A DNA stretch of 64,000 nucleotides, from positions 76,880,001 to 76,944,000 of the forward strand of contig NC_042998.1 in NCBI RefSeq assembly GCF_006345805.1. Reading direction: 5' to 3'. Position numbers and translations under genes: made by a program. Shown one piece after another: positions 58,991 through 61,697 of this stretch. The notes beneath the pieces were generated by a model. It saw only the letters and a program-made list of their open reading frames with translations. It made no database searches and was not told where the DNA came from. Each line of letters opens with the position of its first letter. Within the stretch, counting starts at the first letter, position 1. This DNA comes from Octopus sinensis (taxonomy: Eukaryota).

Positions 58991-59029
58991 CTAGGATAGA
59001 AGATAAGATGACCTACAAAGATTCCATTC

Positions 59030-59233
59030 TATCATAAACAGGCTTCACGAAGCAATACAATTTACTATGGAATGTAATAGAAAGGAACAACCATTTCTGG
59101 ATATCCTTATCATTAAAAAGGCGAAAATATCGAAACAGACATATCTTACAAATTAATGGACACATACCAATACTTAAATTTCCGGTCAGTACACTCCTCA
59201 CATACTAAAAAAACCCATTCAACATGGTAAGAC

Positions 59234-59240
<7 letters not shown>
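59030..59240 (+). pseudogene. Penelope-like RT thumb fragment, inverted relative to 58150-58990
   Basis: LHEAIQFTME...PFLDILII...IETDISYK..DTYQYLNFRS.H..HTKK..PFNMVRRI. Confidence 0.8.
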
Positions 59241-59348: not shown

Positions 59349-60347
59349 ATATATATATAATATATATATATATATGAGATCCAAGGATCGAGGTGTAGGA
59401 AGAACGTTAGCTTCAAGATATTCGTGGTAAATATTAAAACAACTGTCAAGGAAAATAGTGGTTTATTGAGATGGAAAGTTGTACGATAAATTGAAAAAAA
59501 TATTTTTATATTGAATCTTCCATGCGGTAACAAGTACCTCCTTGCGATAATGTAAACTCTCATTTAATCACGATATCGTTGACCTGAAGAGTACATCTCG
59601 CTCGGATATTTACCACTTACTTCCGAGGTTTCTCCCCGTATGAAACATATGTAGGCCGGATCTTATCTACGCCATTTCTTAACTCTTGTATATATATATA
59701 AGACCCACTTCTTCCCATATAAATATCAAATCGCATATTAGTAGGTGGACGGTCACCACACAATCTTACGGCTTCGCAAATAAAGCTGTTACGAATGCCA
59801 ATGAAAAATCCAAAAGGCAAAGAATGGAACAGGTAACGCACGGACTGCAATTGTCTCATAACAAAATGACGATTGTTTCAAAGTAGTAACACACTAAACC
59901 AGATGTTAATCTGCAAGTTTTGTTATCGCAACGTTCAACAAATGTCTCATTTGATCATCATCTCCGAGCGGCAATGTAAAAAGAGACGTTGAGTTAATAA
60001 AGACCTGAAGATTTGCTACGTAGGTTTTGCGTCTGGTACAACTTAAGTAACAAGATTCAATTTCATATGAAATTAAGTGTGTGGGTGTGTGTGAGTGTGT
60101 GCTTGTATGTGTGTGTATGTGTGCGTGTGCGAGTGTATATATGTATATATGTATGCTTTTATACACATTTATGTACTTGTGCGTCACAAATATACACGCA
60201 GCCCCATATACCACTGAACCCTTGAAATAGATGAGATCGTCGGAAGTCTCTTGTCGAAGTAGTAATGTATATGTATATACACATATATAGATATGTACGA
60301 ATACACACATATATATACGCATATGTATACATATATATATAATATAT

Positions 60348-60392
<45 letters not shown>

Positions 60393-60564
60393 AATATTAG
60401 GGAATAAATCCAAATTTACAGGGAAAAAATCAGATTTAGGATTAAATCCAATTTTATAGTAAAATATTATAAAATATTATTAGAGACAAAACCACTATTT
60501 TGCAAAACAAACAAGGAAAGACTTAATCAATACATAAAATTTTAATAAATAGTCAAAAAAACTG

Positions 60565-60607
60565 CCACTACAATTGTTTCTTGTCTTGATCGACAATCTT
60601 CAGGTGG
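60565..60607 (-). ncRNA. Type I hammerhead ribozyme (left arm)
   Basis: Exact reverse complement of 61485-61527. Confidence 0.85.
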
Positions 60608-60990
60608 ACTTCCAATAATGGTACAAGAATTGGGGGATTCTTGTTGAATTCTTCAATTATAGATTGTATCACAAGACCCAGGTTACTATGCATGGTAAAT
60701 TCATTTAATGAAGAACATCCCACAACTTTTGATTGGGAATCCACCCAAGGGTGTTTGGCAGGAGGTTGTATAGTAACAACTGGTTTCTCCTGTGGAAACT
60801 GGGGTGGCAGAGATACTCGGAGGCAAACATTGGTACTGCCACTAACAAATGACACGTGATATTCTACATCTCGAAAAACTTCTTGGATTTTGGGGTTGAC
60901 TTTTTTCAAAGACTCTATTTGCTTGTTTTTCTGAGCTTGAAGATTGGTGGTAGAAACGGCTTTAGTTTTACCCCCCAGTAACCAGTTCAT
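60568..60990 (-). pseudogene. VPS37A: Intronless, 3'-truncated VPS37A (ESCRT-I) retrocopy: N-terminal UEV-like domain, open 140-aa frame
   Basis: MNWL...LQAQK.KQIESL...DVEY...LPPQFPQEKPVV...HPWVD...FTMHSNLG..IQSIIEEF.KNPPILVP matches my recollection of the metazoan VPS37A N-terminus. The C-terminal Mod(r) region is absent. Confidence 0.85.
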
Positions 60991-61119
60991 GTTTGTAATA
61001 TTAAAGCCAGCAGCAGTGATAACAAAACTGTTGACAGGATCGCTTTTACAAGGTTCCAATGTAAAAGCGATCCTGTCAACAGTTTTGTTATCACTGCTGC
61101 TGGCTTTAATATTACAAAC

Positions 61120-61524
61120 ATGAACTGGTTACTGGGGGGTAAAACTAAAGCCGTTTCTACCACCAATCTTCAAGCTCAGAAAAACAAGCAAATAGAGTCT
61201 TTGAAAAAAGTCAACCCCAAAATCCAAGAAGTTTTTCGAGATGTAGTTAGTGGCAGTACCAATGTTTGCCTCCGAGTATCTCTGCCACCCCAGTTTCCAC
61301 AGGAGAAACCAGTTGTTACTATACAACCTCCTGCCAAACACCCTTGGGTGGATTCCCAATCAAAAGTTGTGGGATGTCCTTCATTAAATGAATTTACCAT
61401 GCATAGTAACCTGGGTCTTGTGATACAATCTATAATTGAAGAATTCAACAAGAATCCCCCAATTCTTGTACCATTATTGGAAGTCCACCTGAAGATTGTC
61501 GATCAAGACAAGAAACAATTGTAG
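61120..61524 (+). pseudogene. VPS37A: Second VPS37A retrocopy arm, open 134-aa frame (EYHVSF deleted, one S>P change)
   Basis: Same sequence as the left arm, with ~60 nt of presumed 5' UTR upstream of the ATG. Confidence 0.85.
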
Positions 61525-61527
61525 TGG
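61485..61527 (+). ncRNA. Type I hammerhead ribozyme (right arm)
   Basis: ccac-CTGAAGA-ttgtc-gatcaa-gacaa-GAAA-caattg-TA-gtgg; stem I 4 bp, stem II 5 bp, palindromic stem III, GUA triplet. Confidence 0.85.
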
Positions 61528-61697
61528 CAGTTTTTTTGACTATTTATTAAAATTTTATGTATTGATTAAGTCTTTCCTTGTTTGTTTTGCAAAATAGTGG
61601 TTTTGTCTCTAATAATATTTTATATATATATATATATATATATCACACACGCACACACACGCGCGCACAGACAGACAGACAGACAGACAGACAGATA

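Follow-up and report, generated by a model that had tools for sequence, protein, structure and literature searches.

A hairpin retrocopy of VPS37A in Octopus sinensis, likely formed by exon trapping through a Hydra-type Penelope-like element

SVA elements trap host exons and retrotranspose the chimeric transcripts, e.g. SVA_F1/MAST2 (PMC4859970). In Adineta vaga, a host gene lying between two direct pLTRs was mobilized by Penelope with all of its introns kept, and an antisense template was proposed for it (PMC3846280). Host genes caught between Terminons are described as well (PMC6431247). Canonical insertions of Penelope-like elements (PLEs) have an inverted 5' copy, a tail of 30–40 nt on one end, AT-rich targets and a 5'-UTR intron (PMC8557442, PMC11167929). 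In vitro, a PLE protein cuts and extends both strands, with starts at two sites bounding the tail (PMC11167929). PLEs carry minimal hammerheads with a type I core, a short helix I and a palindromic helix III, and the intron of the D. virilis element ends at the 5' side of helix I (PMC4209133). The Hydra clade (PMC8557442, section 11) is characterized by DKT, an RWK-type motif, a CxCX5C linker and CxxC plus CxH around E and N, by (TA)n targets and a hammerhead, and by an element length below 3 kb.

The VPS37A hairpin of Octopus sinensis likely works in the manner of SVA exon trapping, with a PLE of likely Hydra type as the trap, and is one of dozens. In both systems, upstream host exons are spliced to an element acceptor and the chimeric RNA is retroposed (PMC4859970). 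In contrast to SVA, the element is a PLE, the acceptor stems from its own regular intron and no poly(A) is present. Insertion is into (TA)n and often results in a full inverted pair.

The window comprises 64,000 nt of contig NC_042998.1 (positions 76,880,001–76,944,000). At 60393–61629 of the window, spliced VPS37A exons 1–4 and a hammerhead-bearing PLE end form a near-perfect inverted pair between (TA)n tracts. The hairpin is ~1.2 kb long with ~570 bp in each arm (60468–61050 and 61060–61624), and 9 nt lie between the arms. The left (TA)n tract (60340–60392) resembles the flanks of other family copies, and no target-site duplication is resolvable inside it. The right tract (61622–61643) overlaps the AT-rich element end. 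Elsewhere in the window, an AT-rich stretch up to a (TA)n tract (59000–59235) may be another Penelope-type RT fragment.

The left arm runs on the minus strand. It begins with the long form of the PLE end (60393–60616; 224 nt with hammerhead, pLTR and a ~70-nt tail), the end point of which is that of most long arms in the element family. The complete spliced exons 1–4 follow (60617–61050), so that the host/PLE junction is 60617|60616. The reading frame of this arm opens at the VPS37A ATG and takes in 16 ribozyme-encoded codons before it reaches a stop. The right arm, on the plus strand, contains exons 1–4 at 61060–61475 as judged by the match to the parent exons: exon 1 extends to 61220 (ATG at 61120), exon 2 comprises 61221–61277, exon 3 61278–61392 and exon 4 61393–61475. 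The PLE end of this arm is the short form of about 154 nt, which has no tail (61476–61629). In the alignment of the arms, 18 nt are deleted in frame from exon 2 of the right arm, after 61245, and one substitution is found at 60714 of the left arm, where the right arm (61378) agrees with the parent.

The splice junction, at which the VPS37A exon-4 donor meets the first base past the PLE intron acceptor, is located at 61475|61476 of the plus strand, inside the range of ~61473–61480 given in a preliminary description of this DNA. The (TA)n-flanked inverted order of tail, hammerhead and VPS37A given there is borne out by the arm alignment, and the lack of poly(A) is confirmed in the window sequence; the 18-nt deletion and the substitution are additional to that description. 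The left tail had been described as ~75 nt longer than the right; it is longer, but the difference is about 70 nt (224 versus about 154 nt). The 9 nt between the arms (61051–61059, plus strand) are not a spacer as such. They correspond to sequence lying upstream in the parent, have the sense orientation of the right arm, and represent the 5'-most bases of the captured RNA, present in the right arm only. In the parent they are preceded by TC, as is the element's own first exon, and their beginning is a possible start site.

The captured host sequence encodes a VPS37A-like protein with 96% identity to VPS37A of Argonauta hians. Its parent lies on a contig other than that of the window (G000:C15), where the host part of the arm matches four separate exons over 27 kb with 99–100% identity. 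The piece had been recognized as intronless, and the introns have indeed been lost. Each of the four matched exons has a GT directly at its 3' side. According to tblastn the parent has 10 coding exons, of which exons 5–10 are absent from the retrocopy; the copy extends exactly to the end of exon 4, and the parent reads on from there as gtaagt. Since the host introns are exactly removed, the template was a spliced sense RNA, and the window hairpin is a retrocopy of this VPS37A RNA.

A second VPS37A retrocopy at C2:4.87 Mb is non-palindromic and has the identical junction but another first exon, located within intron 1 of VPS37A and with a GT donor at its end. Because of the different first exon, this copy derives from an independent event. 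The alternative first exon (G000:C15:14102485-14102552) does not contain the start codon of the main first exon.

LINE-1 processed pseudogenes are likewise intronless copies of host mRNA, and a second priming explains their inversions (PMC4859970). They keep the mRNA 3' end with poly(A) and invert without duplicating, whereas the VPS37A hairpin has neither feature of that 3' end, keeps the 5' end and has its cargo doubled. The Adineta vaga case resembles the present one in that PLE terminal repeats suffice in cis, here with PLE enzymes probably supplied in trans, and in the inverted ends with the tail on one side (PMC3846280). In contrast to that case, the introns are exactly removed, the template was spliced and sense, and host sequence is present in both arms.

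The hammerhead end is a repeated, PLE-linked sequence, as had been suspected: a 25-mer of junction and ribozyme occurs 3,132 times without mismatch in the genome, versus 0 times for the reversed control. In 55 matches read from the beginning of contig 1, the junction is preceded by the element intron, by a short spliced exon of the element itself or by a truncation; only L053 has host exons there. Full-length copies as well as L015, L146 and L148 have a GT-AG intron, the acceptor of which coincides with the base where VPS37A joins. The exon 3' of this acceptor contains the whole ~224-nt end common to all copies. The acceptor is retained in 1,219 matches, and spliced copies are likewise common. 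Thus, a spliceosomal intron kept in many copies lies upstream of the ORF of the likely driver element. In full-length copies the same hammerhead-bearing end both precedes the ORF and closes the element; the pLTRs of the family are direct or inverted, with the tail on one end. The insertions share the inverted 5' copy, the one-end tail, the AT-rich targets and the 5'-UTR intron with canonical PLEs (PMC8557442) and, most likely, the two RT start sites (PMC11167929). They differ from these in the tail, which is about 70 nt instead of 30–40 nt, and in the host mRNA cargo (PMC8557442, PMC11167929).

A self-spliced form of the element (L148, L215 and L071) consists of a 23-nt first exon, which starts after TC, followed by ribozyme and tail. 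Tiny palindromes of this ~250-nt RNA make up many copies and represent a non-autonomous unit. At least three variants of the element's first exon exist. At G000:C2:66.80 Mb (L101/L102) a 408-nt unit of ribozyme, tail and start of the element ORF forms tandem repeats; the joint falls on the acceptor base and lacks a GT donor, as would be expected from a circular or jumped template.

The hammerhead core CTGAAGA is present in both arms (at 61489 in the right arm). The right copy (61485–61527, plus strand) is read from the sequence as helix I CCAC/GTGG, a 5-bp helix II, GAAA and a palindromic CAATTG, with a predicted cut after 61523; the left copy (60565–60607, minus strand) is its mirror. This predicted ribozyme fits the minimal type I form of PMC4209133. 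It differs from the hammerheads described there in the position of the intron acceptor, which is 9 nt ahead of helix I. In the fold of the dimer, helix II forms in both copies together with a CCAC/GTGG helix; the full active shape was not obtained in the monomer fold. An Rfam scan of the window gave no hammerhead match; its hits were weak ones, to miRNA and scaRNA models, and fell on repeats and the hairpin centre.

The ORF of the likely driver was identified by its motifs, which are of RT type, followed by C-terminal motifs of GIY-YIG type. YRDD and DKT are present in all 26 aligned driver proteins, CxCX5C in 19 and the nuclease motif Y[IV]G in 18 of them. DKT, CxCX5C and CxxC are found in L146, which also contains the nuclease region, and CxH in L144. 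The driver has KWK at the position where homologs have RWK. Pfam recognized RVT_1 in one and GIY-YIG in one of the 26 homologs, and neither the RT nor the nuclease of the driver itself; a PDB profile search with the driver gave no match. None of the 10 stretches read has an unbroken ORF, the longest being 560 aa. The motifs, the (TA)n targets and the hammerhead fit the Hydra clade, but the driver is longer than the <3 kb given for it (PMC8557442). By its motifs, the driver is likely an EN+ PLE of Hydra type. Between RT and nuclease, the ORF has an asparagine-rich stretch (L144:2700-2950 and L146), which resembles the N-rich inserts of rotifer Penelopes (PMC3846280).

About thirty other insertions appear to share the route of the VPS37A hairpin. 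The scan for exon-like ends (VAG) ahead of the junction gave 34 matches, 30 of which were read and correspond to 21 insertions; foreign sequence is present in 19 of these, and in both arms in 9 of the 19. A second scan for BG ends gave 22 matches. Eighteen were read, one per insertion, and are foreign in nine cases and native with errors in the other nine. Together with the window, the second VPS37A copy, L053, L169 and a copy on C12, foreign-junction insertions amount to 33, so that the suspected fusion of the same end to other host RNAs in palindromes is real. In a part of the 33, the cargo is repeat-derived and not gene sequence. Among the captured sequences are a DUF4674 gene and a piece that is rhodanese-like. 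Of 10 hosts searched for a parent, 7 yielded the junction exon. All nine traced junctions, in 7 host genes, are on GT donors with introns removed. As in exon trapping, host exons ending at a donor are joined to the element acceptor, introns are lost and the product is at a new locus. Retrocopies per host number three at most, and no large subfamily was seen to be founded by a captured exon.

Some insertions gave a less complete picture. The rhodanese-like L103 (G000:C2:103191296-103191599) has no second match in the assembly, and its parent is either missing or undetected. For the L122 host, one parent exon was found but not the junction exon; the L123 parent was not found with a query aimed at the wrong side. 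L125 (G000:C22:28.40 Mb) is an uneven pair. One arm is an intron-retaining element; the other, which looks like a fragment of a Gypsy-type pol, adjoins the acceptor. This single insertion may have drawn on two templates. L116 and L119 both run out in one and the same other repeat directly ahead of the junction, and this repeat may contain a cryptic donor.

How the host exons met the element is best explained by splicing in cis. A sense-oriented PLE copy, once located downstream inside VPS37A, would have trapped the transcript by offering its intron acceptor to the exon-4 donor. This single source copy, now absent from the assembled allele, may be polymorphic, reside on the other haplotype or have been purged because it harmed the gene it trapped. 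The chimeric RNA would have been acted upon in trans by the RT/GIY-YIG protein that an autonomous copy encodes. Such a cis trap by an intronic PLE copy, followed by two-site reverse transcription into (TA)n to give the head-to-head pair, is the probable origin of the hairpin. A rare A variant after the ribozyme (61529, plus strand; 60563 in the left arm) is found in 7 of 985 matches, and three of the seven are VPS37A chimera arms, including that of the second retrocopy. Because two independent retrocopies share this variant, a single source element inside VPS37A is indicated. The other four carriers (4 of 982 matches; two intron-retaining, one self-spliced and one single arm) would fit a small lineage descended from one master. 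Three retrocopies, with three different end points, come from a host on C14. Two of their tails read identical over the compared stretch, except for a one-base gap in one C12 arm; the shared tail variant accounts for 172 of 3,373 matches, and the third copy is absent from the exact matches to it.

The preliminary description had considered a VPS37A transcript running into an intronic pLTR, with the junction at an exon boundary. The transcript reading is favored, but with splicing as the link, and the boundary is present as the exon-4 end with its GT donor. No source copy was found in 88 kb of the assembled allele downstream of this donor, however. Neither was one found downstream of the donors of the L112 (70 kb), L124 (120 kb) and L108 (43 kb) hosts; 40 kb downstream in the L105 host contain only an 82% tail fragment without ribozyme. 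For the C14 host, no source is present in 1 kb downstream or among 74 exact matches to the tail. As one assembled allele cannot reveal a polymorphic or purged insertion, splicing in cis is still rated probable. Three further observations count against it: tails of two subfamilies are attached to one and the same host donor (L124 and L169), L227 and L238 have the same junction with different ribozyme sequences, and the third C14-host copy is missing from the exact matches to the shared variant. Copies of two subfamilies are adjacent in one (TA)n tract at G000:C16:19.53 Mb (L031), and therefore composite sources could explain one donor with two tail types.

Alternatively, the acceptor of abundant PLE transcripts might be used in trans by splice donors of host pre-mRNAs from unrelated genes, so that an intronic copy would not be needed; the ribozyme end added in this way would turn the host RNAs into RT substrates. 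The lack of a source copy at every parent checked agrees with this, as do the two subfamily tails on one donor, the host parts of which differ from the parent by 0–1 mismatch. Missing sources are nonetheless expected if young insertions are polymorphic. Furthermore, independent captures of one gene share rare tail variants, which random partners seldom would; with partners drawn by copy number, the chance of the shared VPS37A variant is about 0.4%. A single tail type is also found behind several different donors of one gene, the pattern expected of a downstream trap. Trans-splicing is thus rather unlikely. The wider proposal that PLE RNA grafts its 224-nt ribozyme tag as a trans-splicing acceptor onto host 5' exons, producing hairpin genes capable of forming double-stranded RNA, is quite unlikely.

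The palindrome is the ordinary insertion form of the element. With or without host cargo, one arm of the family ends at ~154 nt (sometimes ~166 nt) and the other at 224 nt. For the cis-trapped RNA, both target strands may have been nicked, with separate cDNAs starting from the long and from the short end. Joining of the two cDNAs near the RNA 5' end would result in the head-to-head pair in (TA)n. Two primings of this kind are the simplest reading of the arm polarity. The short-tail arm holds the 5'-most bases in the window and in the host palindromes L104 and L111, for which polarity was taken from BLAST lines against the parents. The same applies to 16 of 31 small family palindromes, with 9 showing the opposite and 6 equal ends; three pairs with ends outside the rule were skipped in this measure, which is coarse for older subfamilies. 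The run search, with at least half of the sampled words in 17 of 24 runs, is not counted as evidence. An apparent bias for A in long and G in short arms was an artefact of ranking by the A-bearing window query and is gone in unselected loci.

A single fold-back at the mRNA 5' end, as the preliminary description proposed, would have made the palindrome from one cDNA folded on itself and leave the rest of the model unchanged. It would account for the same host RNA and the same rare variant in both arms, self-priming has been proposed in PMC3846280, and the 9 of 31 small palindromes with the 5' extension on the long-tail arm fit a start from the long-tail strand and speak against two primings. 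Such a start, on the other hand, would leave the 5'-most bases on the long-tail arm, opposite to what is found here and in the 16 of 31, and a cDNA begun at the short end cannot gain a longer tail by self-copying. Two primings fit better because the short-tail arm usually reaches further 5', and a fold-back is considered improbable.

A template switch, in which the RT started on PLE RNA and jumped to VPS37A mRNA, had also been suggested. The ORF-start junction without GT donor at L101/L102 does look like a microhomology jump, but 9 of 9 traced host junctions coincide to the base with both donor and acceptor, and the identical VPS37A junction arose twice, which makes a switch very improbable. 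An assembly or amplification artefact or plain DNA duplication is hardly credible: long inverted repeats can be library artefacts and this hairpin is known from the assembly alone, yet three introns are exactly removed, the arms stop at the two fixed points of the family and are distinguished by the substitution and the 18-nt deletion, and insertions of this design are found at other loci with other host sequences.

The preliminary description had regarded this as an undescribed route to gene duplication. Mobilization of host genes by PLEs and exon trapping by SVA are in print, and the parts (exon trapping, inverted PLE ends) are thus known; their combination, the capture of spliced host exons by a PLE acceptor, was not found in the searched literature, which consisted mostly of non-subscription articles without supplements and may leave room for an earlier report.

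Hairpin retrocopies provide a natural record of PLE replication. They indicate that spliced sense RNA can serve as PLE template, which bears on the choice between sense and antisense templates in PMC3846280, and that the ~224-nt end 3' of the acceptor is enough in cis. Their arm polarity favors two primings. Additionally, the retrocopies mark gene-trap alleles that are gone from the assembly, and cis and trans origins can be distinguished with population DNA and RNA. For the genome, the captures repeatedly give rise to retrocopies in which mRNA 5' ends are preserved and poly(A) is lacking, and which ordinary retrogene screens overlook. Many are long inverted repeats of coding exons, which would yield double-stranded RNA if transcribed. 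Should the trans-splicing reading be true, these hairpin genes would be able to yield double-stranded RNA against their parents.
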